Source of the DNA: an uncultured Alphaproteobacteria bacterium | Lineage (GTDB): Bacteria; Electryoneota; RPQS01 | Length of the DNA stretch: 64,000 nt | Assembly (NCBI GenBank): GCA_964587105.1 | Contig: CAZPKG010000001.1 | Span: forward strand, 115,508-179,507 | Reading direction: 5' to 3' | Shown here: one piece after another, positions 16,615 through 56,169 of the stretch | How the letters are laid out: each line of letters begins with the position of its first letter | How positions within the stretch are numbered: the stretch's first letter is position 1 | Translations under genes and position numbers: made by a program | Notes under the pieces: generated by a model | The model's input: only the letters and a program-made list of their open reading frames with translations | Told to the model about the DNA's origin: nothing | Databases searched by the model: none

Positions 16615-16643
16615 TTGACTTTTCTGAAGTTTCGCTCTACATT
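16615..16643 (+). promoter_or_regulatory. Sigma70-like promoter TTGACT-N17-TACATT for the first BNR/T9SS paralog
   Basis: -35 at 16615-16620, 17-nt spacer, -10 at 16638-16643. The whole promoter and UTR is duplicated almost base-for-base upstream of the second paralog at 18699..18727. Confidence 0.55.
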
Positions 16644-16692
16644 CAGGAAACTTGGAATTTGGGTCCCATATTTTACTCCGCGGAGGTGTCCC

Positions 16693-18727: not shown

Positions 18728-18769
18728 CAGAGCATGGGTCCCGCGTTCATTTTTCACTGGAGGTGTCCC

Positions 18770-23265: not shown

Positions 23266-26200
23266 ATGAAGTTTAAGACATTGCTTTTCGCCGGTTGCAT
23301 TCTGCTCGTCTCGGGGTTGGCAAATGCGCAGTTCAATGCGACACTTTACGATTTCAATGGCGAATTGACCGATGCGTGCACAGGTGGTACACCCTACCCA
23401 GATAATGCCGTCACGATCGAAATCTTCTGGGATGACAATGCGAGCGGCCCGGATCCAACGGACGAACAGCCTGTGGTTGGCGACGGGTTTGCTGAATGCA
23501 ATTTCAATAGCTTCTTGATCAACGGCGAACAGTTCGGATTACCGGGGACTTTCTACACGGACCCGTTGTTCACAATCTCAACTGTAACTCCTCAGCCGTC
23601 GCTGTATTGGCTACGCATATGTGACAATGCGAATGGGATTATGTGGATCAGCGACACCGTACGTATCTTGAACGGCCTGAATGACTACGATTTTGGTGGA
23701 CTGTTCACATGCCATGATTCAACTTGTGGCGGCTGTACGAATCCAACTACAGTATTGGGATTCCAGGCGACGGATGTATCATGCTCACAAGTCTCGATGA
23801 CTTGGAACGCTTATCCTGCAGATCAAGATGTTGATTCGCTTTTCATCTATCGAACCAACGATCAGACATTGGTGACAAGACTGGCTCGGACGGCAACAAG
23901 TTTCAACTACACAAATGCGCCGGATGGGACTTTCAATTACTACATTAAGGCACGCAAGATTTGTGCGGCTCCGGCCGATACGTCTTTCTCAACAGCGGCA
24001 TCCGACTTCGGAACTCGCGTTGCTGCGGCCATTCCACCTGCGGACACATCGTTCACGGCATTTCCGCATCCTACGCAGTGTGGTGCGGTTATTTTGCAAT
24101 GGCGTGTGCCAACAAGTTTGGCAACAATTGATTCATTCAGTGTGTTCTTGAATGGAGTTCTGTACGACAGAACAGGCCCGGGACTTCCGAACCAGCAGCA
24201 GCGTGACACCGTTTTTACGGGGCTATCCGGAGTCCAAAACTACACGGTATCTGGCTGGAGTGAAGAGTGTGGTAATGGTGTTCAGACGATTGCCCGCCAA
24301 GCTACTGCGGCACAACCTCCTGCGCAAGTGACGGGATTGACAGCTTCGACGGGGCTGTGTTCAGTCAACTTAGCGTGGACAGCAGTGCCGGGGGCGACGA
24401 GCTATATTGTGCGCCGTAACGGTTCTCAGATCGGAACTCCTGTGACGAATAGCTTCTCGGATGCGACGGCAACTGTAAATACGGTTTTTGCCTACACCGT
24501 TTCGGCAGTTAACACGTCGTTCCCGGCGGCCTGTCAGGAAGGTGCACAATCAACTTCGGCGAACGGATCGAGAATAGGTACGCCACTCGCGCCAACAAGT
24601 GTGGTGGCCAGTGACTCGACGTTCTGTACGCATGTGGCTATCAGTTGGACGGACAATAGCTCTGATGAATCGGGCTTTGTGGTTCGTCGCGACGGCGCGA
24701 CCATTGTTACAACAGCAGCTGGTGTAACATCGTTCAATGATTCGTTGGCCACTGCAGGGAATCACAACTATGACGTAGCCGCGACCAATACGTGCGGAAC
24801 CAGTACATTCGCAACTGTGAATGTGGGTTCAAAGAAGGCGGTGCCAACAACACCGACTGGACTTCTGGCGACCGACAATCTGCCGACCCATGTTCGCGTC
24901 ACTTGGAATGCGATTATTCGTGAAACCAATATGCGAGTGTTGCGTAACGGCGTTTTACTGGCCACAATTCCTGCAGACTCTGTCGGATACAACGACTTGA
25001 CGGCGGTGGCAGGCCAGGTCTATGCCTACTCAGTTCTGGGTTTCAATGAATGTGGCGACGGTGCTGTGTCTAACGTTGATTCTGGACGCGTGTTGGCTTC
25101 ACTGAACGCCCCAACGAACATTCTTGCTACAGATAACCTTTGTGATCGCGTTACCGTGACCTGGACGGATAACAACTCCGCTCCGCAGGAAACGAGTCAT
25201 TCGATCTTGCGCGACGGAGTGATTGTTGGGAACGTCGGTGCGAACATTACGACATTTGACGACTTCACGGGTACGCCGGGCGTTGTCTATGCTTATAACG
25301 TTCAGGCCGAAGGTACGGGCGGCCCGGCCATTGGAGTTACGCCGGATAACGGAAAGCGCCGGGCGGCGCCTGCGGCTCCGGTGATTGCGGCGGACTCGGT
25401 GGATTGTGAAACCGTCTATGTGAGCTTTACACGCGCCGCGGATTCGGACTCGACGATCTTCTTCCTTGACGGCGTTCAATCGGTACATTCCACTTCGGCA
25501 TCCGGCGCGCTTTCAATTGCCTTGAATGATGACGCTGTGCATGTTCTGACAGCTCAAAGCGCGAATGCCTGTGGTCGTGGAACGGCGACAACTGGAATCA
25601 ATGTGCAACGTGATCAAACACCGACCGGCATTTTGAATCTTGCCGGAACGAGCACAGATTGTAATACGATTCAGGTGACGTGGACTTCGCCAGTTGATGC
25701 TACGAGCTTTGACATGTACATGGATGGCGTTCCACAGGGCAACGTTGCTGCTACTGTACCCCAGCCAGTAACATTGATTTCCGGAAATGGTCCCGCAACG
25801 CGCCAGATCTACTTCATTTCGCGAAATGCTTGTGGAGTTGGTGATACAAGTAACGTGATCAACGTTAGTGTTCAACAAGCTCCGACCGCACCAACAAACG
25901 TCGCTGCGTCTGACACCTCGTGTGCATTGGTTTACGTGACGTGGACAGCGTCCAGCGGCGACGTGGATGGCTATACTGTTCTTGAAGGTGCAAACGTTGT
26001 GGGTTCAACTGGACCGGGAGTGACTACATTCTCTTATGATCCGGGCAACAGCGATGTTCATCAATACACGGTGTTCGCGTTCAGCACGACCTGCGGCAAC
26101 TCTGCGTCTGCCGGACCTGATGCGGGTAACAAGGTTGCGCAGCCGGGCGTTCCGACTAACTTGACGTTTGCGAATAACAGCTGTGACAGCATTCGTATCT

Positions 26201-29200
26201 CGTGGGACGCGGCGAGTGGTTCTCCTGCCAGCTACGTGATTATCGAAAACGGCGACAGTGTCGCCTCGACCACTAACTTGCACTTCGAGTATGTGCCTGC
26301 AGGTGGGCCGGGAACGTATGATATCAGTGTGGCATCGTATTCAGCGTTTTGCGGTACGGGTACACCCTCAGCCCCGGTCGCAATTATTTTGTTCGCGCAA
26401 CCCACGCCGGTAAGCGGGCTGACTGCTTCAAGCAATCGTTGTGACGGCGTGCAGTTGGCGTGGAATACCTACACAGGTATCAATGACGGCTTCATTATTT
26501 ATCGCAACGGCGTACTGGTCACGACGACCGCGGCTGATGCAGTTGGATATTTTGACGCGGCGGCCGGTCTGGGAGCAAATCACTATGCCGTGATCACACT
26601 CTCGAATTTGACGGGCTGTGCCGAGTCTGATTCGGCGACGGCAAACGGTGCGGTTCTTCCGCTCCCCACCGTTCCGACCAACGTTGCGGCGACCGATACG
26701 TCGTGCGCCGATGTGTTTGTGACTTGGACGGCTTCCAGCGGCACTCTCGATGGGTATATTGTCTATCGCGGCGGAGTTCAAATCGCGACTGTGAATGCAC
26801 CGGCTACGAGCTATACTGATACAGGTATTTCTGGTGGCACGACGGCGGCTTATACAGTGGCTGCATTTGATGACATTTGCGGCACCTCAAGCCAATCGAC
26901 CGGCGATAACGGCACGCGCCTGCAAGGGCCGGCGGCGCCGACGGGTGTTGTCGCGTCTGACAATAGCTGTACTCAAGTTGACATAACTTGGAACACGGCT
27001 CCGGGTGACGTGACCGAGTATCGAGTCTATCGTAGCGGCGTGTTCATTGGCTCTGTGACACCTCCGACTACTTCATTTACGGACGCGATTGCGACAGGGA
27101 CGTTTGCTTACACTGTTACGGCGTTCAGCACGAACTGTGGAGAGACGGCTCAATCCGTTGCAGATGACGGAACCCGTCTGCCGCAAATGGGACAGGTGAC
27201 CGGCGTAACGGCGTCTGTTGACAGTTGCCAAGGGATTCTGGTGACGTGGGCGGCGCATTTGGGCGCAGTTAGCTACCGCATTTCTCGTGATGCTTCATTT
27301 ATCGCTGAAGTCAATGCACCGACGCTTCAGTATTTCGACAACACGGTGGCTGAAGGCGTTACGCACAGCTATACCGTGGCAGCGGTTAATCCGTGCAATA
27401 CGGGTGTTGAGTCTGGGGCGGCTGTGGGTTCGCGCGCTTCGACGCCATCGCAAGTGACGGGTTTGACCGCGTCAACTAACTTGGTCAGCCAGGTTTGTTT
27501 GAGCTGGACAGACGTGACAGGTGAACTTAGCTATCATATCTACCGTGACGCCGTTCTGATTGCTACAAACGGCGCGGATGACGTTGACTACTGTGATATT
27601 ACAGCTACACCGGGCACGACATACACTTATACCGTTGCGGCCGCGAATGTTTGTGGCGAAGGCACTCTCTCCGTCGGCGCGCAAGGTTCGGCAGTGTTCA
27701 GCCTCGGTCAAGTGACAGGATTGGCCGCGACCACGACCGATTGTGCGCAGATTTGCCTGACGTGGACGGATATTTCTAATGAGACCGGTTACGAAATTTT
27801 GCGTAACGGCACGACACTGGCAACGGTCGGCGCAGGAGTGGTTACCTATTGCGACTTAACACCCGCTCCGGGTGAGTGTTTCACATATGTGGTCCGAGGC
27901 TTTAACATCGGCGGCAACGGTCCGCTTTCGGCTGAAGTTCAGGGTTGCCGTCGGAGTATCCCGACTCAGGTGACGGGACTTACGACGACGAGTACGAATT
28001 GCAATGCGGTCGTGTTGAACTGGAACGACGCGACAGATGAAGATCGCTATGACGTCTATCGAGACGGCGGATTGTTGGTTCAAAACGTCGGCGCGCTGAC
28101 TTATACTGATAACTCGGCTGTGGCCGGAGTTGTGTATGCATACACGATTTTGGCTGTCAACGCCTGTGGCAATGCGCCGCAGAGCGTTGCCGTAAACGGC
28201 GTTCGTGCAATGACCCCGCCGCCGGTTACCGGCGGAGTCGCCTCGATAGACGTTTGTAACCAGATTGGCTTGAATTGGTCGGATCAACTCTCGGAACTTG
28301 GCTATCGCATTTATCGTGACGGTAACTTCCTGACTCCGATTGCAACGGTCAATGCGAATACGACCATCTATGTTGACGCGAATATTACCGGCTCACATAC
28401 CTATAATATCCGCGCATTCAATGATTGCGGCAACGGCGACCTGAGTGCTGACATTGTCGGCCTCGGTTTGACCACCCCGGGTATTGCTACGAACGTGGCA
28501 GCGGTTGAAAACTGCGGCGACGTTACGGTCACATGGACAGCGCCGAATACGACTCCGATTACAGAGTACCGTATTTTGCGCAACGGCGTTCAGGTCGGCG
28601 TTGTATCGGCTCCGGCGACGACGTATCAAGACTTGAATCTTCCGGCGGGAAGCTACAACTACCGCGTGGTGACAGCGAACCAGTGCGGAGCGGGCACGCA
28701 ATCGGCGCAGAGCAACGGCGTGACGGTTATCCCCACTCTGGTGCAAGTTCCGACCTTTACCGCGACCGCCAGCCCGTGCTTCTGTATCGACGTGACATGG
28801 GGCAACGTGGCCAATGAAGACGGTTACTATCTCTATTGTGACGGCGTGATTGTGGATACGTTGGGTGCGAACGTGACCTCGACAAACTACTGTCCTGCAG
28901 ATACGCAGTCTTGCGTCGTGCAAGTAGCGGCGTTCAATGCGTGCGAAATCGGACCGTTGTCGGTTGGAAATTCGGTTACTCCGAATACATATCCGGCGAT
29001 GGTCAGCGGATTCTCGGCAAGCGAAAATATTTGTGACCGCGTGCGCTTGACTTGGAATGCATATAACCAGCCGGGCGTAACGAGACTGAAGATTCGTCGC
29101 GACGGCGTGGCGATCGCAACTCTGTTGTCGGGCAACACGTCGTTTGAACAGCTTGGTTTGTGGCCGCAGAGCGTTTACAGCATCACAGCCTTGCGCGTGT

Positions 29201-31674
29201 GCGCCGCCGGCGATACGATTGAAGCTCCGCTTGCGATTGACAATGGCCGGACGGCTCCGACGCCTGCTGCTCCAACGCAGATGGCTGCATCGGATGACGG
29301 CTGTGGTATCGTAACGGTGACATTTACGTTCGCAAATGTGGATGGTCAAGACTCGGTGATGGTGAAGCGCAATGGCGTTATCATTGCCCGTCTTGCGGGT
29401 GGCGTGGCAAACGTGCAGCGATCATTTGTTGATACCAGCCCGCTGGGTGTGACGGCGACCTATGAAGTCTGCCCGGTTTCGAATTTGTGCGGTCAGGGCG
29501 GATGTGCCAGCGATCTGGGCCAAGCGGCTCCGACGGCAGGTCTTGTAACCGACGTGACGGCAACAACCGATCGTTGTACTTCGATTATCGTCAGTTGGAC
29601 CGGAACGCAGTTCGCTTTGAACTATCAGGTTCGTCGAAATGGAACGCTGATCGCCACCGTGCCGCAAGGACAGTTTTCCCATACGGACAACGTCTCGACC
29701 GGCGTGGTGAATACCTATACTGTAACGGCTACAAACGCGTGCGGAAGCGGACCGCAGTCACAACCTGCGCAAGGTTCGACGATTCCGTTGCCGCCTGTTC
29801 CGACCGGAGTTTCGGCTTCAGACGGTTTGTGCAACCAGGTTGTTGTGACCTGGAATGAGATCGGCGTTGCGACGGGTTATGAAGTGTGGCGCAACAACGC
29901 GCTCTTGGCCGAAGTGCCGGGCGGTGTTGAAGTGTACACGGACCTTGCCGTGACACCGGGAACGACTTACAACTATCAAGTGCGCGGCGTTAACCAGTGC
30001 GGCAGCGGCAACTTGTCGGCAGCAACGACAGGTTTCTCGGCGCAAGTGATTACAACTGTCACAAACGTCGTAGCGACGACGAATTTGAATGACCGCGTCC
30101 GCATCACGTGGAACAACGTTCCGCAAGAAACGGGCTATCAGATTCTGCGCGGCTTCCCGGCGGAAGTGATTGCAACGGTCGGCATTGACGTGACCAGCTA
30201 CAATGACTTCTCGGCAGCTCCGGGTGAAGAGTATGAATACCGCGTGCGGGCATTTAACGGTTGCGGCGAAGGCGAAATGTCCGTCGTGACATACGGATAC
30301 CGCGTGCCGGTAGATCCCATTCCGTTCGGCGTCATAACCGTTACTGAAGAGTTGTTCGGCTGTTTGTCGGCGGTAGCGCAGGATATGGATAACGACGGCG
30401 ACGCGGACGTTGTGGCCGCCGGTATGTTTGCGGACAAAGTAGTGTGGTACGAGAATACGGGCACGTGGGATTACATTCCTCACGTCGTGGTCGAGAACTG
30501 GGATGGCGCGCGCTCGGTTGCGGTCGGCGATATTGACGACGACGGCGACATAGACATCGCGGCTGTGGCGCAGTTTGCCGATCAGCTGGTGTGGTTCCGC
30601 CACAATGCCAACGGCACATATACGACCTTCGTCATTGCGAATAATTACGACGGCGCGCGTGACGTGTCCATTGTGGACCTTGACCGCGACGGCGACAAGG
30701 ACCTCGTGACGGCAGCCTGCGACGCGAACGATATTTCTTGGTGGCGTAATAACGGTACGGAAACATTTACCCGCGTCGTGGTGGATAATAACTTCATTGG
30801 CGCGCGCACCGTGGAAGTCAAGGATATCGGCGGCGACAACGATTGGGACATTCTGGCGTCGGCCTACGAAGGTGGAATGCTGGCGTGGTACTCAAACAAC
30901 GGTACACAGACGTTTACGCGCAACGTGCTGATGTCTGACGTGTATGGCGCGTCGTATATCAGCGCGGCCCGCTTGAACAGTGATAACGTGCTGGATATCT
31001 ACTTCTGCGTCGCGCAACAGCCGATGATCGGATGGATTGACGGCGCAACGCAAACATTCCATGAAGTGACGACGTTGGTTCCGTTCCCGCGCGAAATGGA
31101 CGCGGTGGACATGGATCAGGATAATCGCGCGGATCTCTTGCTGGCGGCCAACGAGAACCAGGAAATTTCGTGGTGGCGCAATACAGACAACCGTTTCTAT
31201 CGCAATCCGATTACGACTACTCTGACGCAGGCGTCCGTGGTACATGGTGGTGACTTTGACAACGACGGCGACAATGACGTGTTGGGCGCAGGCGAAGGCA
31301 CCATCAAGATTTGGCTGTCGGCACTGTCGGACGATACGCATGAATCCGAACTTATCATTCCGCAGGATGACGGAACCGACAAGCCGACCTATAGCCAGTC
31401 GATCGTTCCGTTGAACTACGAACTGTCGGCGAACTACCCGAACCCGTTCAATCCGATGACGCAAATTCGGTTCGGTTTGCCGGAAGCACAGAATGTCAAG
31501 CTGACGGTGTATGACGTGACCGGTCGTGAAGTCGCCCGATTGGTGGACGGCTCGTTCGGAGCGGGTTACCATACCGTGACGTTTGATGCGACGAATCTGG
31601 CCAGCGGATTGTATCTGTATCGCATCGAAGCGGGTGACTTCGTGTCGAGCCGCAAGATGATCTTGATGAAGTAA
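23266..31674 (+). CDS. Giant (2802 aa) T9SS cargo protein with about 26 tandem FN3-like repeats, a 7-bladed FG-GAP/VCBS beta-propeller and a T9SS CTD. Putative cell-surface adhesin.
   Basis: RBS GGAGGTTATACG-ATG. Signal peptide MKFKTLLFAGCILLVSGLANA. About 26 units of roughly 90 aa, each with the pattern P..PT.(V/L).A(S/T)D..C..V.(V/L)TW...........Y.(V/I).R.G..(I/V)....TS(Y/F)TD......Y.Y.V.A.N.CG. Seven D(M/I/L/F)D.DGD.D FG-GAP calcium-binding blades (DMDNDGDAD ... DFDNDGDND). It ends YPNPFNPMTQIRFGL...VSSRKMILMK. Confidence 0.85.
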   Translation: MKFKTLLFAGCILLVSGLANAQFNATLYDFNGELTDACTGGTPYPDNAVTIEIFWDDNASGPDPTDEQPVVGDGFAECNFNSFLINGEQFGLPGTFYTDPLFTISTVTPQPSLYWLRICDNANGIMWISDTVRILNGLNDYDFGGLFTCHDSTCGGCTNPTTVLGFQATDVSCSQVSMTWNAYPADQDVDSLFIYRTNDQTLVTRLARTATSFNYTNAPDGTFNYYIKARKICAAPADTSFSTAASDFGTRVAAAIPPADTSFTAFPHPTQCGAVILQWRVPTSLATIDSFSVFLNGVLYDRTGPGLPNQQQRDTVFTGLSGVQNYTVSGWSEECGNGVQTIARQATAAQPPAQVTGLTASTGLCSVNLAWTAVPGATSYIVRRNGSQIGTPVTNSFSDATATVNTVFAYTVSAVNTSFPAACQEGAQSTSANGSRIGTPLAPTSVVASDSTFCTHVAISWTDNSSDESGFVVRRDGATIVTTAAGVTSFNDSLATAGNHNYDVAATNTCGTSTFATVNVGSKKAVPTTPTGLLATDNLPTHVRVTWNAIIRETNMRVLRNGVLLATIPADSVGYNDLTAVAGQVYAYSVLGFNECGDGAVSNVDSGRVLASLNAPTNILATDNLCDRVTVTWTDNNSAPQETSHSILRDGVIVGNVGANITTFDDFTGTPGVVYAYNVQAEGTGGPAIGVTPDNGKRRAAPAAPVIAADSVDCETVYVSFTRAADSDSTIFFLDGVQSVHSTSASGALSIALNDDAVHVLTAQSANACGRGTATTGINVQRDQTPTGILNLAGTSTDCNTIQVTWTSPVDATSFDMYMDGVPQGNVAATVPQPVTLISGNGPATRQIYFISRNACGVGDTSNVINVSVQQAPTAPTNVAASDTSCALVYVTWTASSGDVDGYTVLEGANVVGSTGPGVTTFSYDPGNSDVHQYTVFAFSTTCGNSASAGPDAGNKVAQPGVPTNLTFANNSCDSIRISWDAASGSPASYVIIENGDSVASTTNLHFEYVPAGGPGTYDISVASYSAFCGTGTPSAPVAIILFAQPTPVSGLTASSNRCDGVQLAWNTYTGINDGFIIYRNGVLVTTTAADAVGYFDAAAGLGANHYAVITLSNLTGCAESDSATANGAVLPLPTVPTNVAATDTSCADVFVTWTASSGTLDGYIVYRGGVQIATVNAPATSYTDTGISGGTTAAYTVAAFDDICGTSSQSTGDNGTRLQGPAAPTGVVASDNSCTQVDITWNTAPGDVTEYRVYRSGVFIGSVTPPTTSFTDAIATGTFAYTVTAFSTNCGETAQSVADDGTRLPQMGQVTGVTASVDSCQGILVTWAAHLGAVSYRISRDASFIAEVNAPTLQYFDNTVAEGVTHSYTVAAVNPCNTGVESGAAVGSRASTPSQVTGLTASTNLVSQVCLSWTDVTGELSYHIYRDAVLIATNGADDVDYCDITATPGTTYTYTVAAANVCGEGTLSVGAQGSAVFSLGQVTGLAATTTDCAQICLTWTDISNETGYEILRNGTTLATVGAGVVTYCDLTPAPGECFTYVVRGFNIGGNGPLSAEVQGCRRSIPTQVTGLTTTSTNCNAVVLNWNDATDEDRYDVYRDGGLLVQNVGALTYTDNSAVAGVVYAYTILAVNACGNAPQSVAVNGVRAMTPPPVTGGVASIDVCNQIGLNWSDQLSELGYRIYRDGNFLTPIATVNANTTIYVDANITGSHTYNIRAFNDCGNGDLSADIVGLGLTTPGIATNVAAVENCGDVTVTWTAPNTTPITEYRILRNGVQVGVVSAPATTYQDLNLPAGSYNYRVVTANQCGAGTQSAQSNGVTVIPTLVQVPTFTATASPCFCIDVTWGNVANEDGYYLYCDGVIVDTLGANVTSTNYCPADTQSCVVQVAAFNACEIGPLSVGNSVTPNTYPAMVSGFSASENICDRVRLTWNAYNQPGVTRLKIRRDGVAIATLLSGNTSFEQLGLWPQSVYSITALRVCAAGDTIEAPLAIDNGRTAPTPAAPTQMAASDDGCGIVTVTFTFANVDGQDSVMVKRNGVIIARLAGGVANVQRSFVDTSPLGVTATYEVCPVSNLCGQGGCASDLGQAAPTAGLVTDVTATTDRCTSIIVSWTGTQFALNYQVRRNGTLIATVPQGQFSHTDNVSTGVVNTYTVTATNACGSGPQSQPAQGSTIPLPPVPTGVSASDGLCNQVVVTWNEIGVATGYEVWRNNALLAEVPGGVEVYTDLAVTPGTTYNYQVRGVNQCGSGNLSAATTGFSAQVITTVTNVVATTNLNDRVRITWNNVPQETGYQILRGFPAEVIATVGIDVTSYNDFSAAPGEEYEYRVRAFNGCGEGEMSVVTYGYRVPVDPIPFGVITVTEELFGCLSAVAQDMDNDGDADVVAAGMFADKVVWYENTGTWDYIPHVVVENWDGARSVAVGDIDDDGDIDIAAVAQFADQLVWFRHNANGTYTTFVIANNYDGARDVSIVDLDRDGDKDLVTAACDANDISWWRNNGTETFTRVVVDNNFIGARTVEVKDIGGDNDWDILASAYEGGMLAWYSNNGTQTFTRNVLMSDVYGASYISAARLNSDNVLDIYFCVAQQPMIGWIDGATQTFHEVTTLVPFPREMDAVDMDQDNRADLLLAANENQEISWWRNTDNRFYRNPITTTLTQASVVHGGDFDNDGDNDVLGAGEGTIKIWLSALSDDTHESELIIPQDDGTDKPTYSQSIVPLNYELSANYPNPFNPMTQIRFGLPEAQNVKLTVYDVTGREVARLVDGSFGAGYHTVTFDATNLASGLYLYRIEAGDFVSSRKMILMK

Positions 31675-31738: not shown

Positions 31739-31795
31739 TGCTCGTAATATGTGGTACTGCTACTGTCACTTCAACCGGAATTACCGGAGCACAAT

Positions 31796-33817
31796 ATGTC
31801 TGAAGCGTTAGATCGTCTGAGTATTAACACGGTGCGTGGTTTAGCAATTGACGCGGTTCAAGCGGCGAACTCGGGGCATCCTGGATTGCCGCTTGGAGCC
31901 GCAGTGATGGGCTACACGATTTTTCAGAAGCATCTGCGGCATAATCCGCTTGATCCGGCTTGGGTGAATCGAGATCGATTTGTTCTGTCGGCGGGACATG
32001 GTTGCGCGCTGTTGTATTCGTTGCTGCATTTGACAGGTTACGATTTGCCGATGGAGCAACTTAAGAAATTTCGTCAATGGGACAGCATCACGCCGGGGCA
32101 TCCAGAGTTAGGGATGACGCCGGGCGTGGAAGCGACGACTGGTCCGCTTGGTCAAGGCGTCGGAAATATCGTGGGGATCGCAATAGCGCGCGAAATGCTG
32201 GCAGCGATGTTCAATCGAGAAGGGCACGACGTTATCAATTTCCGCGTGTTTGGAATTTGTTCCGACGGCGATTTGATGGAAGGAGTGGCGGCGGAAGCAG
32301 CTTCGCTTGCGGGCCATCTCGGACTTGGATCGATTGTCATGCTTTATGACGATAATCACATCACGATTGACGGTTCAACTGAGATTGCGTTCACTGAAGA
32401 CGTCGGCGTGCGATTTGAAAGCTACGGCTGGCAAGTTTTAGCGTGCGACGGGATGAACGCAGACGAAGTGGATCAAGCCATTCGCGAGGGGATTGCCGAG
32501 AGCGAGCGACCGACGTTGATTCGCTGCCGAACGCAGATTGGCTATGGTTCTCCGAACCGCGCAGGCACTTCGAAGGTGCATGGCGCGCCGCTGGGTGATG
32601 AAGAGTTGTCTTTGACCAAAAAAGCGCTCAGCTTGCCTGAGAACGAGAAATTCTATGTTGCTTCGGAAGTTTTCAAGTATATGGGCGCGGCGCGGCAATC
32701 GGGCGCGGAACGTCAGGCGGCTTGGCAGAGTTCATTAGAAAAATCGTTTGCGGCGAATGCTGGATTGCAGCATCTGTGGCAGCAATTTTGGTCACGCAGA
32801 CTGCCGGAAAATTGGGCCGACAAGCTTCCGACGTGGAAAACAACGGATAAGCCGATTGCCACGCGCAAGGCCTCGGAGATGTGTTTACATGCGGTGACAG
32901 AATTGCCGTGGATCGTCGGCGGCAGCGCGGACTTGGTGGAATCGAATCTCACTTATCTTGAAGGCAAGGGTGATTTTCAGCGCGATCATCATGCGGGCCG
33001 CAATATTCGATTCGGGATTCGTGAGCACGGCATGGGTGCGATCCTGAACGGACTGGCTGCCAGCGCGCCATTCATCGCGTTTGGCGCTACGTTCATGAAT
33101 TTTCTCGATTACATGAAACCGTCAGTGAGAATCGCGGCATTGTCGCATTTGCCGGTGCTGTATATTTTCACACATGACAGCATTGGCTTGGGCGAAGACG
33201 GCCCGACGCACCAGCCTATTGAGCACTTGACGCACATGCGCGCTACGCCGAACTTGTGGACCATGCGGCCGGCTGATGCGAATGAAACCGCGCAGTGCTA
33301 CCGAGTAGCGCTCGAGCGTACGGATGGGCCGGTGGCGCTGTGTTTGACGCGCCAGGCGTTGCCGATTCTTGAGTACCCAGGCGAACGGTTGCCGGTTGAG
33401 TTGGGCGCCTATGTTCTCGCGGAAGCGAAGAACGAAAAGCCGGAGATAATCCTCATGGCGAGCGGAAGTGAAGTGGAGATTGCGTTGGGCGCCAAGTCGA
33501 TGCTGGAACAGGAAGGGATTGCGACGCGCGTCGTATCCGTGCCGTGCGTAGAACTGTTCGACAAGCAGCCGCAAGCCTATCGCGAGCAGGTGTTGCCGGG
33601 CAATGTGCGCGCGCGCGTTGCAGTTGAGGCGGGCGCTACGTTGGGCTGGTGGAAATATATCGGGCTTGACGGCGACGTGGTGGGACTCGATCGGTTTGGT
33701 GCGTCTGCTCCCGCAAAGACTTTATATGAGAAATTCGGATTGACTGCCGAGAATGTCGCACGCCGCGCGATGTCGGTGCGTGAGCGCGCGCGCTCTGCTG
33801 AGGGAGTCTTGAAATGA
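31796..33817 (+). CDS. tkt: Transketolase
   Basis: Track ORF begins at an in-frame GTG at 31751. ATG at 31796 has a GGAG RBS. GHPG thiamine-diphosphate motif and GEDGPTHQP in the transketolase-family region. Confidence 0.9.
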
Positions 33818-34263
33818 AACTTGCAGTTGGAAGCGATCATGCGGGATTCGAACTCAAGAAAGAATTGGTAGATTGGCTGACTGCGCAAGGACACGTCGTC
33901 GTGGACGTGGGCACGCACTCAACGGAAGCCGCCGACTATCCCGATTTTGCACAGAAAGTCGGTCACGAAGTAACCGAGCGACGCGCTGAACGCGGAATCA
34001 TCGTATGCGGTAGTGGAGTGGGCGCGTGTGTGGCGGCGAACAAAATGAAGGGCATTCGCGCAGGAATGTGCCACGACACGTTTTCAGCCCGGCAGGGAGT
34101 GGAAGACGACGATATGAACACGCTGTGTTTGGGCGCGCGAATCATCGGAGGAGAACTCGCGCGCGAAGTGTTGAAGGCCTTTCTGAATGCGAAATTCTCA
34201 GGTCTCGAACGGCATCAACGTCGATTGAACAAAGTCCTCGCCATTGAGGCTGCCGGAAAGTAA
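33814..34263 (+). CDS. rpiB: Ribose-5-phosphate isomerase B
   Basis: [15 protein letters not shown]...[13 protein letters not shown] are RpiB/LacAB signatures. There is a 4-nt ATGA overlap with tkt. Confidence 0.9.
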
Positions 34264-34289
34264 GCGAACGAACAATTTAGGAGATAAAA

Positions 34290-35390
34290 ATGAGTCATCC
34301 GATTATGAAGGCCACGCTCGACTTAGGGCAGTCGTTGTGGCTTGATTACATCAGTCGGGAGTTGATGGACTCCGGCGGTCTTGAGCGACACGTTGCGGAA
34401 GGGCTGCGGGGTATGACCTCAAATCCGACTATTTTTGAGAAGGCGATTTCCGGAAGCGCGGACTATGATAACGACATTCGCAAAGGGATCGCGAGCGATC
34501 TGTCAGCCGGCGACGTGTTTGAGAATCTGGCCGTTTCTGACGTGGCGCGTGCATGCAACATGCTGTCGGGAGTGTACCACGATTCACAGGGCGTGGACGG
34601 CTATGTCAGTTTAGAAGTTTCGCCGACGCTCGCGCATGACACAAAAGGAACCGTGAAGGAAGCGCTGCGCTTGTGGGAGCGCGTGAACCGTCCGAACTTA
34701 ATGATCAAAGTTCCCGGCACGTCGGCGGGGATTCCTGCCGTTCTGGAACTCCTGACGCGTGGAGTGAATGTAAATATTACGTTACTGTTTACATTGGACC
34801 AGTACAAGCAGGTGCTTGAGACATACATTCAAGCTCTGGAAGCGCGCCATGCCGCTGGACAAAATCTCGCTCAAATGGCGTCAGTTGCGAGTTTCTTCAT
34901 CAGCCGAATTGATTCAGTGGCCGACGCGCAGCTTGAAAAACTGGGACGCAAAGACTTGATGGCTAAGGGTGCGATTGCGAACGCCTGTTTGGCTTACAAG
35001 CACTTTCAAAATGTCACCGCCTCGCCACGCTGGCAAAAGCTTGCACAGGCCGGCGCGCGCGTCCAAAGACCACTCTGGGCATCAACATCAACCAAGAATC
35101 CCGAGTACTCAGATGTACTCTATATCGAAGAACTGATCGCGGATCATACCGTGAATACCGTCCCGCCGCAAACGCTGTCGGCATTTAAGGATCACGGCAA
35201 GCCCGCTCTGAAGCTGCTGAAGAACATGGAAACGGCGGACAAGACTCTGACGGAAATGAAAAGCCTCGGAGTTGACATTGACAAGATTGCCTTCGATTTG
35301 ATTGAAGACGGCGTGGTCAAATTTGCTCAGTCGTTCGACGCGATGCTTGGCGCAATTAGTTCAAAGCTGAAAGCCGGCGCGACGGCATAG
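34290..35390 (+). CDS. tal: Transaldolase
   Basis: SLWLDYISRE...TSNPTIFEKAI...NLMIKVPGT...NITLLF is the transaldolase signature including the Schiff-base lysine region. Confidence 0.9.
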   Translation: MSHPIMKATLDLGQSLWLDYISRELMDSGGLERHVAEGLRGMTSNPTIFEKAISGSADYDNDIRKGIASDLSAGDVFENLAVSDVARACNMLSGVYHDSQGVDGYVSLEVSPTLAHDTKGTVKEALRLWERVNRPNLMIKVPGTSAGIPAVLELLTRGVNVNITLLFTLDQYKQVLETYIQALEARHAAGQNLAQMASVASFFISRIDSVADAQLEKLGRKDLMAKGAIANACLAYKHFQNVTASPRWQKLAQAGARVQRPLWASTSTKNPEYSDVLYIEELIADHTVNTVPPQTLSAFKDHGKPALKLLKNMETADKTLTEMKSLGVDIDKIAFDLIEDGVVKFAQSFDAMLGAISSKLKAGATA

Positions 35391-35411
35391 CAGTATTTCA
35401 AATTGAAAACT

Positions 35412-35449
35412 AAAAAGCGGCAGACCGGAATGGCCTGCCGCTTTATTTT
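35412..35449. terminator. Bidirectional terminator GCGGCAG-loop-CTGCCGC-TTTATTTT between tal (+) and the carbonic anhydrase gene (-)
   Basis: 7-bp GC stem flanked by an A-run on the left and a T-run on the right. Confidence 0.7.
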
Positions 35450-35465
35450 GCGATCTTTAGTGCAC

Positions 35466-36308
35466 TTAGTGTTTGTACTTTGAGCCGCTGGTTTTGCGCG
35501 AGGCTTCTGAATGCTCAGAAGAGGATTTGTCATCCTTCTTTTCAGTTTTGGCTACTGACTTATGCGAATCACCCGCCTTGGTTTCTTCGGCTTTGGGAGC
35601 TTCAGCTACGGGATGAGACTCAGCTTCAGCTTTCTGCATGGCCACTGCACCAAGCTGAGATTGCCACAACACCGCGCCGGATTCGATGTCGTACACTGCC
35701 GAAAGCACGACGCAATTTCCGTCTGAGACGGCCTGTTCAATTTCGCGGGAACCTGAGATTAGAATGGAAGCACCGTTGCGCGCATTTTCTTTGATCACTC
35801 CCGAATAGAGATCGTCGGCGCCGTAGCCTTTTGACTGGCAAGCTTCAACGCTTGGTCTGATTTCATTCACGAGAGTGTTGAGTGGCTCAGGAAAATCGGA
35901 TTCTGACAAGGCCGCTCCGACTGCGCCGCACTTGGTGTGGCCCATGACGAGCACAACTGGACAATGCAAATGACCTACTGCATAATCTGCCGATGCTTGC
36001 ACCTCTTTTGGCGTGACGTTTCCGGCCACGCGGATCACGAACAGCTCGCCGAGACCGGCGTCGAAAATCTGTTCTGGCGGGACACGCGAGTCCGAACATG
36101 TGATGATGCAGGCATAAGGCGTTTGACCGGCCGAGAGATGCTCACGCTTGGTTGCGCCGCTATCCCAGACCTTCGGTTTGCCTTTCACAAAGCGTTCATT
36201 GCCTTTTTGCAGATTGGTCATGGCCTGATCAACCGTCCAAGCCGGGGCGTTGTCGTTCGCAAACGCGACTGCGCAAGAAACGAATATGAGTATGAAGATT
36301 CTAAACAT
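35466..36308 (-). CDS. Secreted beta-class carbonic anhydrase with K/E/S-rich disordered C-terminal tail
   Basis: Signal peptide MFRIFILIFVSCAVAFA. CSDSRVPPE and HxxCGAV zinc-ligand motifs. The roughly 60-aa tail is lysine, glutamate and serine-rich. Confidence 0.85.
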   Translation of the reverse strand: MFRIFILIFVSCAVAFANDNAPAWTVDQAMTNLQKGNERFVKGKPKVWDSGATKREHLSAGQTPYACIITCSDSRVPPEQIFDAGLGELFVIRVAGNVTPKEVQASADYAVGHLHCPVVLVMGHTKCGAVGAALSESDFPEPLNTLVNEIRPSVEACQSKGYGADDLYSGVIKENARNGASILISGSREIEQAVSDGNCVVLSAVYDIESGAVLWQSQLGAVAMQKAEAESHPVAEAPKAEETKAGDSHKSVAKTEKKDDKSSSEHSEASRKTSGSKYKH

Positions 36309-36451
36309 TGTGTTCTCCGTTTTTGGTTAGACGGTTTCCGAAGCGCAAACCTTATTCCAGAGCGATGCAAAATGAAGCTCACCCAAAGGCGCGTTTATTG
36401 CTCGTACACATTCGACTTATCATTCAATTGGATACTCCACGTTAGCTGCAC

Positions 36452-36823
36452 ATGGAACAATCTATAACAACTTCAACGCCGCACGTCAGTCGAGGTCGCT
36501 TGGACGAAATAGGAATGGGCGACCCGGTGTTTACAGCCGAACTGATTGATATCATGCTTGAAGACGGCGCGACGCGGATTCAGAAGATTCGTGCCGCCTG
36601 TCAAGCCGGATTTCAGGATGAAGTCGGAAAGCTTGCGCATTCATTGAAGGGCGCGGCCCTAAATGTCGGCGCGCTTTCGCTTGCCAATATGTGCGCGGCA
36701 ATTGATGAGGCAGTGCGCAAGCATGGAACTCCGTGTACGGGTGACCAAGTTGCGACTTTAGCGCAAGAATTTGCGGACGTTTCACATGAACTCACGTTAA
36801 TCAAGAGTGAACTAAGTGCATGA
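36452..36823 (+). CDS. Histidine phosphotransfer (Hpt) domain protein
   Basis: HSLKGAALNVGA is the Hpt H-x-x-K-G phospho-histidine motif. 123-aa four-helix-bundle size. Confidence 0.75.
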   Translation: MEQSITTSTPHVSRGRLDEIGMGDPVFTAELIDIMLEDGATRIQKIRAACQAGFQDEVGKLAHSLKGAALNVGALSLANMCAAIDEAVRKHGTPCTGDQVATLAQEFADVSHELTLIKSELSA

Positions 36824-37464
36824 AAGTGCTTGCCGTTGATGATGATCGCGTTACGCTCTTAACGCTGCGCCGGTTGCTGGAGAAATTCGGTTACGAGGCT
36901 TTAACTGCGGCAAACGGCACGGAAGCGCTCCAACTCTTTCTTGATCACCGCCCGAAGATGCTCGTCACGGATTGGATGATGCCCGAGATGGAAGGTCCGA
37001 CCGTCGTGAAGACGATTCGAGCATTTGCCGAGTCTGAGTACACGTATATTATCATGTTGACGTCGCGCCAGGATAAAGACGACATGATGGCGGGAATGCT
37101 TGCCGGAGTGGACGAGTTTCTGACTAAACCGATTGATCCGGATCAACTGCGGGCGAGACTGCGCGTGGGTAAGCGCATCATGTTGCTGCAAGAGAGCCTC
37201 GGCAGACGTGTTCGCGAGCTTGAGGAAGAACGTGAACACGTCAAGATGTTGCAAGGGTTCTTGCCGATCTGTTCTTACTGCAAAAAGATTCGCAACGATG
37301 AAAATTTGTGGTCGCAAATTGAAGAGTACATTTCCGACCATCAAGCGAACATACAGTTCTCGCATTCGATTTGTCCGGAGTGCTACGATTCCAAAGTGAA
37401 GCCGATGGAAGAGGCATTTTGGGCGAAGAAGAAAGCCGAGCAGGAGTGCTTGCACGAGCATTAG
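36820..37464 (+). CDS. Response regulator: receiver domain plus C-terminal Cys4 (CxxC...CPxC) putative zinc-binding output domain
   Basis: REC signatures (VDDD, TDWMMP, LTS...K). C-terminus LPICSYCKKIRNDENLWSQIEEYISDHQANIQFSHSICPECY. There is a 4-nt ATGA overlap with the Hpt gene. No DNA-binding domain is present. Confidence 0.8.
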   Translation: MKVLAVDDDRVTLLTLRRLLEKFGYEALTAANGTEALQLFLDHRPKMLVTDWMMPEMEGPTVVKTIRAFAESEYTYIIMLTSRQDKDDMMAGMLAGVDEFLTKPIDPDQLRARLRVGKRIMLLQESLGRRVRELEEEREHVKMLQGFLPICSYCKKIRNDENLWSQIEEYISDHQANIQFSHSICPECYDSKVKPMEEAFWAKKKAEQECLHEH

Positions 37465-37482
37465 ACGATATTTCATTGCACT

Positions 37483-37518
37483 AAGCGGCTCAGACTCACG
37501 TTGGGCCGCTTTTTTGTG
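37483..37518 (+). terminator. Probable terminator AGCGGC-15-nt loop-GCCGCT-TTTTTTGTG after the response regulator
   Basis: Weak: long loop, but a T6 tract follows. Confidence 0.45.
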
Positions 37519-37574
37519 CTTGCGATATTCACGGGCATGTCGTATATTTACGGTCAACAACCTTGTGAGGTACC

Positions 37575-38252
37575 ATGACGGCAGAACAGCTTGCGGCCTA
37601 TATTGATCATACAATTCTTAAGCCCGAGGCTACTTTGGAGCAGGTCGAAAAATTGTGTGCTGAAGCGCGAGAATTTCGATTCAAAACGGTGTGCGTGAAT
37701 CCGCGATTCGTCAATCGATGCGCTGTGTTGCTTGAGGGTAGCGGCGTCGCGGTTTGTACGGTCATTGGATTTCCGTTAGGTGCGACGTGCACCGAGTCCA
37801 AGGTTGCAGAGTGTTTGCAGGCTGTTGCGGATGGAGCTACCGAGATTGACATGGTTTTGTGGATCGGCGGATTGATTGGAGGACGAAACGCAGATGTCGA
37901 GTTCGATATTCACGCCGTAGCTGACGCATGCCGACGGAGCGGCGCTTCTCTGAAAGTGATTTTTGAAACGGCGATGTTAACCGAAGATCAGATTATCACT
38001 GCGTGTGGGTTGTGCGTCAGAGCGGGAGCGAAATGGGTAAAGACGTCCACTGGATTTGGACCTGGCGGCGCAACGGTTGAGGCTGTCAAGATTATGCATC
38101 GTGAGGTTTCTGCTCACGGCCTAAAGGTGAAGGCGTCAGGCGGGATTCGCACGCTCGCAGATTTTAACAAAATGATCGAAGCGGGGGCCGAGCGGATTGG
38201 GACTTCGAGCGGAGTGGGGATTGTGAATGAGTTACTGAGTCAGTACTCGTAG
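37575..38252 (+). CDS. deoC: Deoxyribose-phosphate aldolase
   Basis: IDHTILKPEAT, VCVNP, GFPLG and KASGGIR (Schiff-base lysine) signatures. 225 aa. Confidence 0.85.
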   Translation: MTAEQLAAYIDHTILKPEATLEQVEKLCAEAREFRFKTVCVNPRFVNRCAVLLEGSGVAVCTVIGFPLGATCTESKVAECLQAVADGATEIDMVLWIGGLIGGRNADVEFDIHAVADACRRSGASLKVIFETAMLTEDQIITACGLCVRAGAKWVKTSTGFGPGGATVEAVKIMHREVSAHGLKVKASGGIRTLADFNKMIEAGAERIGTSSGVGIVNELLSQYS

Positions 38253-44849: not shown

Positions 44850-45361
44850 TTTACTTGTGCGGCCTGCCGGGATCAGGGAAGAGTACCATTGGCCCGCTGC
44901 TTGCAAAATTGCGCGGTCAGCCGTTCATAGATTTGGATACGATGATTGCTGAGCGCGCCGGGATGGATATTCCGGCGATTTTTCGTTCATTGGGCGAGCC
45001 GAAATTTCGCGACTTTGAAAATCTTGCTCTTGTGCAGGCAGCGAGTCGCGGCGACAGTGTGATTGCGCTGGGCGGCGGCGCATTGGGCCGTGAAGACAAC
45101 CGTGATATTGTGCTCGCGAGCGGAATGCTGATTCACCTCGAAGCGCCGTTGGCATTGTTGGCTGCACGGACCATGAATCAACTCAACCGGCCGCTGCTTG
45201 ACAGCAATGATTCGCTGACTGAGCGGTTGGCGGCGCTGAAGAGTTTGAACGAGCGGCGCAAAGACCAGTACGAGCTTGCACCGCTAAGTTTTCCGACGAC
45301 GGATGAGGATCCGATGCAGACTGCGCTGATGATTTTTGAGGCAATTGATGGACTCGTTTGA
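44840..45361 (+). CDS. aroK: Shikimate kinase
   Basis: VYLCGLPGSGKSTIG P-loop, FIDLDT, and a size of 173 aa. Confidence 0.85.
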   Translation: MAIVYLCGLPGSGKSTIGPLLAKLRGQPFIDLDTMIAERAGMDIPAIFRSLGEPKFRDFENLALVQAASRGDSVIALGGGALGREDNRDIVLASGMLIHLEAPLALLAARTMNQLNRPLLDSNDSLTERLAALKSLNERRKDQYELAPLSFPTTDEDPMQTALMIFEAIDGLV

Positions 45362-46913
45362 CCTGAAAACACAGAGCGGCATTGTGCCTATCCGTTATGC
45401 TTTTTCAAACGCGACGTGGGTGGCGAATGAGATCGCTCGCATGTTGGGAGTGCGCAGACCGCGTTTGTTCGTCGTGACAGATGAAAACGTGGCGCTGCAC
45501 CATCTTGAAAACCTGAAGTCTGCGCTCATTTCGGACGGATTCAGCCTTGACGTGTGCATCTTGCCGCCGGGTGAGGAGCAGAAGACGATTGCCCGCACGA
45601 AGTTCCTGCTTGACATTTTGGCGCAGAAGAGATTCGCCCGTGATGATATTGTACTTGCTTTGGGCGGTGGAGTGATTACGGACTTGGCTGGATTTTCGGC
45701 GAGCGTGTACCAGCGTGGGATTCAATGGATTGCAATTCCGACGACGCTGTTGGGAATGGTGGACGCTGCGATTGGCGGAAAGACGGGCGTCAATCACGAA
45801 CTGGGCAAAAACTTGATCGGCTCGTTTCATCAACCCAGGATGGTGCTGGCTGAGTTGTCGATGTTGAGCACGTTGGCGCCGCGCGGGATTCGTTCAGGCG
45901 CCGCTGAGATTGTCAAGGGCGCGCTGCTCGCGGGTGGAGATTTTTGGAGTGAAATTGAGTCTGCGAGTGCAGACGCGATGCAGTGGAGTCCACGGCAATT
46001 GGAGCGTTTTGTCGCACGCGGAGCGGCAGTGAAGATTGATATCGTAGCACGCGATGAACGCGAAAGTGGCGACAGAATGCTGCTCAATTTGGGGCACACA
46101 TTCGGGCATGCGCTTGAACAGGTTAGCGGTTACGGCTCACTTGCCCATGGTGAAGCGGTGTTCTACGGCATTCGCGCGGCGATCAGGCTCTCTGAGAAAT
46201 GCGGCATGATGCCGCAGCCGAAAGCACGCTCTCTCGACAAATGGATCGCAACGCTTGAGTTGCCAGGAGCGAAATGCACGGCGGATGAACTCATGTCTGC
46301 GATTCAATCCGACAAGAAGACGGCATCTGGGAAACTCCGATGGATTCTCTTGCGCGAGCCGGGAAAGCCTGTGATCAGTCACGATGTACCGGAACAGGTC
46401 GTGCGCGAGTGCGCTGAATGGCTTGCCGAGGTCACAAGTAGTGGGGCGGAGGCAATTTCGATTCCGCGTCGGCGGCGCGTCGTCGTATTAAATGGTCCGA
46501 ATTTGAATTTGTTGGGGTCGCGTGAACCTTCGGTGTATGGCTCCATGACGTATGAAGAATTGAGCAAACAATGTTTTGAGTGGGCTGAAGACCTCAATTT
46601 TGATCTGTTGATTCGGCAAAGCAATCACGAAGGTGAGTTTGCCGAGTTGATTCAGTGGGCGCGCCGCTGGGCAGACGGATTGATTCTAAATCCCGGCGCG
46701 TTTACACATACATCTGTTGCTGTCCGCGATGCGCTTGCCGCCGCAAAATTACCTGCGGTTGAGGTTCATCTTTCGGACCCGTCCGCGCGTGAAGAGTTTC
46801 GCCACACCTCCCTCATTTCGGATTTGTGCCGCCGGACCATCAAAGGGCTCGGCCCTGATGGCTACCGGGAGGCCCTGACCGAACTTGCCTTCTCCCTGCC
46901 GGAAACCGCCTAA
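45348..46913 (+). CDS. aroB-aroQ: Bifunctional fusion: 3-dehydroquinate synthase (N-terminal, about 370 aa) plus type II 3-dehydroquinate dehydratase (C-terminal, about 150 aa)
   Basis: Track ORF starts at TTG 45336; ATG at 45348 gives MDSFDLK. The N-terminal half has GGGVITDLAGF...GGKTGVNH...GHTFGHALE DHQ-synthase motifs. The C-terminal half has VLNGPNLNLLG..EP.VYG, QSNHEGE, NPGAFTHTS and EVHLSD...REEFRH type II dehydroquinase motifs. Confidence 0.85.
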   Translation: MDSFDLKTQSGIVPIRYAFSNATWVANEIARMLGVRRPRLFVVTDENVALHHLENLKSALISDGFSLDVCILPPGEEQKTIARTKFLLDILAQKRFARDDIVLALGGGVITDLAGFSASVYQRGIQWIAIPTTLLGMVDAAIGGKTGVNHELGKNLIGSFHQPRMVLAELSMLSTLAPRGIRSGAAEIVKGALLAGGDFWSEIESASADAMQWSPRQLERFVARGAAVKIDIVARDERESGDRMLLNLGHTFGHALEQVSGYGSLAHGEAVFYGIRAAIRLSEKCGMMPQPKARSLDKWIATLELPGAKCTADELMSAIQSDKKTASGKLRWILLREPGKPVISHDVPEQVVRECAEWLAEVTSSGAEAISIPRRRRVVVLNGPNLNLLGSREPSVYGSMTYEELSKQCFEWAEDLNFDLLIRQSNHEGEFAELIQWARRWADGLILNPGAFTHTSVAVRDALAAAKLPAVEVHLSDPSAREEFRHTSLISDLCRRTIKGLGPDGYREALTELAFSLPETA

Positions 46914-56067: not shown

Positions 56068-56169
56068 AACGAATGACCGCCGAGCCGGGTTAAGGTCCTC
56101 CGCAACCCGGCCGGAATCTGCCTGTTCGCCGAGCGGGGATTAAGCGTAGCGGTTCCCCGCCGGAATCTC
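56068..56169 (-). repeat. Two tandem units of a structured REP-like element (56126..56169 and 56068..56119), positioned 3' of the PD40/T9SS gene
   Basis: Each unit is CGCCGAG-C-stem-TTAAG-loop-stem'-(G/C)CCGGAATCT. The stems differ but remain complementary: GGGGA/TCCCC versus CCGGGTT/AACCCGG. Confidence 0.55.

Follow-up and report, generated by a model that had tools for sequence, protein, structure and literature searches.

In the 64-kb window under study (64,000 nucleotides of contig CAZPKG010000001.1, assembly GCA_964587105.1), a stand-alone histidine phosphotransfer (Hpt) protein is encoded immediately upstream of a response regulator that combines a receiver (REC) domain, a coiled-coil linker and a C-terminal tail with two pairs of cysteines (the Cys4 tail; Table 1). 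The signaling logic of such a pair is itself known; what is new is its output module, which is undescribed and very widespread. The two reading frames overlap in the tetranucleotide ATGA, implying their translational coupling, and a 4-bp overlap between a Hpt-bearing gene and a tail gene recurs in many other genomes. The terminator-like hairpin that follows would close a two-gene operon. The initial annotation of this DNA had described the overlapping Hpt and REC-protein reading frames, and its coordinates and every detail that could be checked proved correct. A 237-residue open reading frame on the opposite strand (36901-37614), overlapping both the regulator gene and the beginning of deoC, is most likely spurious.

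Table 1. Features of the Hpt-regulator locus and its flanking genes (positions in the window; residues of the encoded protein)
Feature	Position	Strand	Residues and properties	Basis
Hpt gene	36452..36823	+	123 aa; stand-alone histidine phosphotransfer	open reading frame list and sequence
Overlap ATGA (Hpt stop TGA, regulator start ATG)	36820..36823	+		read from sequence
Regulator gene	36820..37464	+	214 aa; REC, coiled-coil linker, then Cys4 tail	
REC domain	36826..37161	+	3-114	Pfam Response_reg, E=7.7e-26
Signaling-helix / coiled-coil linker	37162..37260	+	115-147; continues REC helix alpha5	
Cys4(+His) tail core	37261..37383	+	148-188; LPICSYCKKIRNDENLWSQIEEYISDHQANIQFSHSICPEC	alignments, position frequencies
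C-terminal helix after CPEC knuckle	37384..37461	+	189-214	AlphaFold2 (AF2) helix 186-213
Intrinsic-terminator-like hairpin and T-run	37483..37521 (hairpin 37483-37511)	+	11-bp stem with 6 G-C pairs, then TTTTGTGCTT	
beta-Carbonic anhydrase	35466-36308	-	signal-like N-terminus; divergently transcribed	Pro_CA, E=2.5e-35
DeoC-family aldolase	37575-38252	+		Pfam scan

The upstream product is recovered by the Pfam Hpt profile (E=6e-13, residues 30-111, 82 of 84 profile positions) and carries its phospho-accepting histidine, His63 (codon at nt 36638-36640), within AHSLKGAALNVGA, a motif of the HxxKG type (AHSLKGAA). Profile and motif together place it in the Hpt family, where it also shows weak NCBIfam matches to the Hpt regions of LuxU, TorS and BarA. 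Its start is ambiguous: M1 gives the length listed in Table 1, and M22 at 36515, as in one external gene call, gives 102 residues. The receiver of the downstream product has the complete phospho-acceptor set, namely D8/D9, D51 (nt 36970-36972), T81 and K103. Across 52 full-length homologs D51 is invariant, with D8, T81 and K103 conserved in at least 90%, and the AF2 model of the domain shows alternating beta and alpha elements at a predicted local distance difference test (pLDDT) score above 90, all of which identifies it as a response regulator of the REC superfamily.

Between the receiver and the tail lies a helix with the signature of a signaling helix. In the AF2 model residues 107-140 form one unbroken helix, and a heptad repeat places L, L, V and L at positions 127, 134, 141 and 148. 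Over the same 52 homologs no exception is seen at L127 or L144, and almost none at L123, R130, L134 or L148. Of 277 proteins, 258 (93%) have the 'KP' motif of the REC domain and the 'PIC' motif of the tail 45 residues apart, and the other spacings (31, 38, 52 and 66) correspond to 45 plus or minus 7n, with 3 exceptions only. This heptad quantization, along with the long helix and its a/d-type leucines (L127, L134, L144 and L148), is diagnostic of signaling helices, which run as a continuous coiled coil from input to output in lengths that keep the heptad register and pass rotation or register changes on to their output. As the linker helix ends at the invariant proline of LPIC, the tail would be rigidly attached to it.

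The tail itself is the best-conserved region of the regulator, with a pairwise identity of 69% as against 53% for the linker, 49% for REC and 42% for the stretch after CPEC. Its cysteines are C151, C154, C185 and C188, the two pairs being separated by 29-30 residues, and an invariant histidine, H182, is also present. In 357 domain copies, the consensus L-P-I-C-S-Y-C-K-K-I-R-D-D-x-N-Y-W-Q-Q-V-E-x-Y-I-x-x-H-S-x-A-x-F-S-H-G-I-C-P-E-C shows P, C, C, W, F, H, C and C at 100%, R at 99%, and K, D, Y, E and Y each above 90%; exactly four cysteines are found in 93% of the copies. Such conservation goes well past what chance would produce. The core is usually 40 residues long, and the window protein is among the 29 copies with 41, having one inserted residue. 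Past the last cysteine P195, seven residues on, is conserved in at least 90% of homologs, the rest of residues 189-214 being variable; a fifth cysteine of the window protein, C210, is not conserved. The two cysteine pairs, the tryptophan and the histidines had already been pointed out in the initial annotation, exactly as they are found here, and the pattern is invariant in the homologs. From this invariance we strongly infer that the tail binds metal; most likely it holds one ion, probably Zn, via C151, C154, C185 and C188. We ran AF2 on monomers, both of the full protein (52 sequences) and of the tail alone (150 sequences), and the two models give the same order of elements: a beta-hairpin knuckle that holds the first CxxC, then a helix from W164 to H174, a short strand at F-S-H, and CPEC at the start of the last helix. 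The predicted layout resembles a treble clef more than a zinc ribbon.

Searches for a known family to which this module might belong were negative. Residues 141-214 retrieved zero NCBIfam families at E<=1, and in Pfam the whole regulator matched only REC. The isolated tail and several of its homologs likewise gave only REC, PAS or GAF in Pfam and NCBIfam, with matches of zinc-ribbon type at E values of 0.08-0.7, and the precomputed Pfam annotation of tail-only homologs reads '-'. Neither single-sequence nor profile searches of PDB sequences returned anything significant, the best match being between the first knuckle, PICSYCKKIRND, and the knuckle 'PICEYCKVIRRN' of bL36 (profile E=0.5, not significant). 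The Rad50 zinc hook, in which, too, a coiled coil ends in a CxxC, was matched at E values of about 1.2-1.8, again not significant. A full-text search of the literature by sequence motif and keywords, to which most subscription journals are closed, yielded nothing on the Cys4 tail. Hence the initial view of the tail as lacking an assigned function holds: it matches no known characterized domain, has no model in Pfam, NCBIfam or PDB, and its public names go no further than 'response regulator' or similar.

Several zinc and iron modules were considered by name, and the tail differs from bL36, the Rad50 hook, rubredoxin and DksA/TraR alike in having no significant sequence or fold match and no Pfam match to their families. 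The C4 zinc finger of DksA/TraR was rejected because neither Pfam nor NCBIfam reports it and because of the 29-30-residue spacing of the cysteine pairs in the tail. That same spacing is close to the one in rubredoxins, and the second knuckle of the tail reads CPxC; both features would fit a rubredoxin-like center, in which the cysteine pairs bind Fe or an Fe-S cluster and the output consists in electron transfer or the sensing of iron or O2. We give this idea very little credence. No rubredoxin or Fer4 family of Pfam or NCBIfam is matched even at E<=1, and the glycine that follows each rubredoxin knuckle is absent, its place being taken by a lysine and a variable residue, on which two grounds membership in the rubredoxins was rejected. 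Moreover, a helix is predicted between the knuckles, and the tail is abundant in aerobes.

The tail is far from peculiar to the window regulator. A word-indexed search queried with the C-terminal 96 residues found 352 proteins. When a 50-sequence tail profile was run exhaustively through hmmsearch against 1.84 billion cluster representatives (clusters at 50% identity), 24,256 of them matched at E<=1e-3, of which 19,904 reach E<=1e-10. In a scan of one genome per species we located at least 600 tail sites. The loci analyzed further are the best 80 of these, that is, those most similar to the window tail, with 76 of them used for the study of neighbors. They come from Acidobacteriota, Planctomycetota (Gemmataceae, Scalindua), Verrucomicrobiota, Armatimonadota, Rokubacteria, Nitrospirota, Desulfobacterota (Desulfobotulus, Desulfacinum, Geomonas, Smithella), Gemmatimonadota, Cloacimonadota, Chloroflexota, Bacteroidota and Deferribacteres, and the tail spans more than 10 phyla. 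The initial annotation had placed comparable tails in other anaerobic lineages; other lineages do carry it, but the restriction to anaerobes is too narrow, as Acidobacteriota, Gemmataceae, Verrucomicrobiota and Gemmatimonadota commonly have the tail. It is essentially absent from viruses, with 2 loci only in the IMG/VR collection (contigs L091 and L092).

In public databases, carriers of the tail from cultured organisms (WP_144685540.1, WP_073036310.1 and WP_183344857.1) are called only 'response regulator' or 'DUF3365 domain-containing protein', and JGI (Joint Genome Institute) names for orthologs of the regulator are RsbU (many members), OmpR or CheY-like. Some of the orthologs (P0125, P0133, P0141 and P0145) are designated 'response regulator transcription factor' by NCBI, which most likely derives from the similarity of their REC domain to that of OmpR/PhoB-type regulators, since no DNA-binding domain is detectable in them. 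Taken together, this looks like a systematic mis-annotation driven by the REC domain. The regulator in the window has no match at E<=1 to Trans_reg_C, GerE, LytTR, any other helix-turn-helix (HTH) family or any other output domain of Pfam and NCBIfam; GGDEF, PP2C and HD-GYP are all absent from it in the Pfam search. Its assignment to the OmpR/PhoB-type transcription factors was rejected, as the winged helix is absent and the NCBIfam matches to proteins of this type span only REC and the linker, to about residue 148 at most. The initial proposal that the tail stands in place of a DNA-binding domain is thus borne out by Pfam and NCBIfam.

In the literature, the nearest precedent for such a tail is provided by HalOD2 and TackOD1, archaeal C-terminal domains linked to REC that have paired CXXC motifs, are predicted to bind Zn and are of unknown function (Galperin et al., 2018; PMC5847659). 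In HalOD2, which is confined to a few halobacteria, 20-25 residues separate the CXXC motifs, and TackOD1 has 11 conserved cysteines (PMC5847659). Going by these descriptions, the Cys4 tail is set apart from both by the longer stretch between its pairs, by its complement of four cysteines and one histidine, and by its bacterial and very widespread occurrence. HalOD2 has also been predicted to be a Zn-finger output, for which its authors proposed DNA or RNA binding (PMC5847659), and along with the conserved K-K-I-R motif and the 'transcription factor' names given to some orthologs, this raises the question of whether the tail could be a minimal DNA- or RNA-binding domain and the regulator a transcription factor. 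We consider this highly improbable: no DNA-binding family in Pfam or NCBIfam matches the tail, which has an acidic net charge (mean -1.6, and -4 in the window protein) and is frequent on integral membrane sensors. On account of its charge and these membrane-bound carriers we dropped DNA binding as the leading idea, and the acidity favors a non-transcriptional output, as the initial annotation had supposed.

The place of the tail within its proteins is nearly constant: with few exceptions no further domain comes after it, its end lies 5-57 residues from the C-terminus, and a coiled coil always precedes it. REC-tail proteins of about 200-215 residues dominate, and are accompanied by REC-PAS-tail, GAF-tail, PAS-tail and transmembrane (TM)-HAMP-tail proteins, by MASE6-tail proteins (19 of 67 long members), by PocR-, CHASE3- and HisKA_7TM-tail proteins, and by Reg_prop/Y_Y_Y-TM-tail and DUF3365(CxxCH)-TM-HAMP-tail proteins. 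One of the carriers from cultured organisms, WP_183344857.1 of Geomonas paludis (L083, 5014-6249), has a DUF3365-type periplasmic domain with a CxxCH haem-c motif, a TM segment, a coiled coil and the tail, and is potentially tractable. The tail thereby occupies the usual place of a kinase, cyclase or HTH output; as many sensors have no other cytoplasmic domain, the output must be carried by the tail, which ranks as an independent output module. Several natural tandem fusions, of the forms (REC-tail)x2, (MASE6-tail)x2 and REC-tail-tail (P0240, P0244, P0246, P0249 and P0276), suggest that tails work in pairs; in some of them the second copy has partly degenerated. Some proteins continue past the tail into PilZ, Hpt, HisKA or REC. 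As potential Rosetta-stone fusions these were set aside, several of them apparently resulting from read-through or a frameshift between neighboring genes, or being isolated cases.

These architectures bear directly on the possibility that the tail is a thiol or metal redox switch, in which Cys4(+His) senses oxidants or the availability of Zn or Fe, and oxidation or loss of the metal unfolds the tail and gates the output, so merging with the signal of the phosphorelay. Four invariant cysteines and an invariant histidine in a cytoplasmic domain would suit such a role, and the pattern CxxC...CPxC is typical of zinc-thiolate switches; Hsp33, RsrA and DksA provide precedents for switches of the zinc/redox kind. 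We nevertheless regard a redox switch as unlikely. The tail lies downstream of many kinds of dedicated sensor domains, which is the place of an output and not of an input, and it is carried by aerobic and anaerobic lineages alike. In addition, K155, K156, R158, D160, W164, E168 and Y170, which belong to the non-ligand surface, are conserved like the ligands, and a pure switch would not need that.

The genomic neighborhoods link the tail to phosphorelays. A Hpt-bearing gene is immediately adjacent to the tail gene at 26 of the 76 loci (21 upstream and co-directional, 5 downstream), and lies within 6 kb at nine more. Six of the 21 upstream genes encode small proteins of 113-264 residues; the rest encode proteins of 512-1871 residues with a C-terminal Hpt, mostly of the size of hybrid kinases, and a 4-bp overlap with the tail gene is frequent. 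Of 75 upstream neighbors, 34 carry REC, 26 HATPase_c, 23 HisKA and 21 Hpt. These observations reinforce the initial description of the pair as a candidate terminal node of a phosphorelay: across genomes the REC-tail protein appears to be a recurrent terminal acceptor of phosphorelays of the form HK-REC-Hpt (HK, histidine kinase), and in the window the Hpt is a protein of its own and the kinase would be encoded elsewhere. No histidine kinase is found when every open reading frame of at least 180 residues in the window is compared with Pfam, and the REC, Hpt and tail profiles match nothing in the window beyond the pair, in agreement with the earlier statement that it contains no cognate hybrid kinase. 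A recurrent family of non-signaling neighbors is likewise lacking, upstream and downstream of the 76 loci, among ten neighbors of members without REC, and beside two small membrane-anchored members.

Accordingly, we posit that the Hpt-regulator pair forms the last leg of a phosphorelay, in which a metal-binding dimeric tail is switched via the coiled coil and acts on a partner encoded at an unlinked locus; we rate the chances of this reading as just short of even. A hybrid histidine kinase encoded outside the window would phosphorylate His63 of the Hpt, and transfer from there to Asp51 in the regulator would follow, in keeping with what is known of these families. Phosphorylation would then drive a rotation or a register shift of the coiled coil, as its heptad phasing suggests. 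The coiled coil and the tandem fusions both point to a dimer, and as the coiled coil would be a parallel one, the two tails would lie side by side. The metal-stabilized tails of the dimer might thereby be re-presented, with the invariant surface formed by K-K-x-R, D-D, Y-W and F-S-H being exposed or hidden, and a conserved partner encoded elsewhere may be bound or released by them. The absence of a recurrent non-signaling neighbor is counted in favor of this reading.

A number of points weigh against it. The neighborhoods, which hold only two-component genes and unrelated ones, offer no candidate for the partner. As many as 23 of 74 downstream neighbors are further REC proteins, such that the tail family could be a modulator or a phosphate sink and not the main output. 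The linkage to Hpt may be weaker across the whole tail family, because the loci analyzed are those most similar to the window tail. As for the structure, the models are of monomers, and their confidence in the tail is medium: the full protein has a mean pLDDT of 85, with 53-71 in the tail, and the tail alone has a mean of 75, with 61-77 in its core. The tail models find no fold match among solved structures by a fold search that is insensitive for metal domains of 40 residues, and since they resemble no solved structure the fold assignment is weak.

Some of the same observations would be expected if the tail were a structural dimerization cap, which would do no more than clamp the coiled coil at its end, possibly through inter-subunit metal sites like those of the Rad50 zinc hook; the regulator would then drain or buffer phosphoryl groups from the Hpt, or bind the kinase, and would need no separate target. 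In line with this are the absence of a conserved non-signaling neighbor, the REC proteins encoded downstream, the terminal position of the tail, and the weak, non-significant matches to the Rad50 hook profile. Such a role seems unlikely to us, as the tail, its exposed charged residues included, is more conserved across phyla than REC, which is more than a clamp needs, and as many members are membrane or PAS/GAF sensors with neither REC nor any other cytoplasmic domain and so cannot be phosphate sinks. We retain the phosphorelay with a switched tail dimer as the preferred reading.

In its logic this phosphorelay resembles several well-known ones. As in the LuxU-LuxO and the ArcB, BarA and TorS systems, a Hpt of the HxxKG type, here with weak matches to LuxU, TorS and BarA, is followed by a REC acceptor encoded directly downstream, and as in systems of the ArcB/BarA type, the upstream gene in other genomes encodes a hybrid kinase of the form HisKA-HATPase-REC-Hpt. 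Unlike LuxO and the partner regulators of ArcB, BarA and TorS, the window regulator has as its output neither a sigma54-AAA+/HTH module nor a winged helix, and no kinase is encoded within the 64 kb. The REC domain with its long alpha5-linker helix further matches the N-terminal 127-133 residues of the models for DgcR and PleD (REC-GGDEF), and a similarity to regulators of the RsbU type (REC-PP2C) is seen in the RsbU labels that JGI attaches to many tail members and in a linker quantized in heptads, as in signaling-helix regulators. What sets the window regulator apart from the DgcR, PleD and RsbU types is its output, a Cys4 module of about 40 residues and not an enzymatic domain.

The immediate neighbors of the pair are, as had been noted from the outset, a divergently transcribed and possibly secreted beta-carbonic anhydrase, with a match to Pro_CA and a signal-like N-terminus, and a DeoC-family aldolase. 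Past its Pro_CA domain the carbonic anhydrase has about 60 further C-terminal residues, in which Lys, Ser and Glu are abundant. The gene order in this lineage runs tkt-rpiB-tal, carbonic anhydrase (-), Hpt-regulator, deoC, NHL-thioredoxin (-) and aro genes, and relatives with protein identities as low as 71% (L087, L089 and L090) keep it without change. An identical regulator is present in public data (P0121), and orthologs that are 71-96% identical share the synteny; orthologs of the regulator carry Calditrichota-like names. This fixed order shows stable inheritance and provides no functional link. The pair thus sits among genes of the pentose-phosphate pathway (tkt, rpiB, tal and then deoC; 31751-38252). 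Elsewhere in the window, a single 525-residue open reading frame (45336-46913, +) joins both domains of a 3-dehydroquinate synthase, N-terminal and C-terminal, to a type II dehydroquinase, a fusion also found in relatives. The sorting domain of the type IX secretion system, Por_Secre_tail, ends a 2802-residue fn3/FG-GAP/RGI-lyase protein (23266-31674, +) and four others (1692-2660, -; 16615-18612, +; 18734-20575, +; 56168-57331, -). These sorting domains put the organism in the FCB group, with which the Calditrichota-like ortholog names agree.

Finally, the breadth of the family raises a more general point. The diverse sensors that end in the tail, with REC, PAS, GAF, HAMP, MASE6, DUF3365 or Reg_prop/Y_Y_Y domains as their inputs, may number in the thousands and may all converge on one conserved target or hub in the cell, such that the tail would constitute a major unrecognized class of signal output, a metal-centered dimer switched by a coiled coil, on a route apart from transcription-factor, kinase and cyclic-nucleotide outputs. 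We advance this tentatively, its chances being in our view somewhat below even. Censuses of two-component systems class regulators by their output domain. At present a tail of about 24,000 clusters goes unnamed or is mislabeled as a 'transcription factor'. The locus in the window is one ordinary member of this large, sharply defined, unannotated and experimentally approachable family, which by virtue of its invariant motif, fixed terminal position and heptad-phased linker is ready both for a Pfam-type model and for direct biochemistry. Finding the ligand or partner of the tail would give a function to a large block of the signaling proteins of environmental bacteria, and would also explain how sensors that possess neither a kinase nor a HTH domain transmit their signals.

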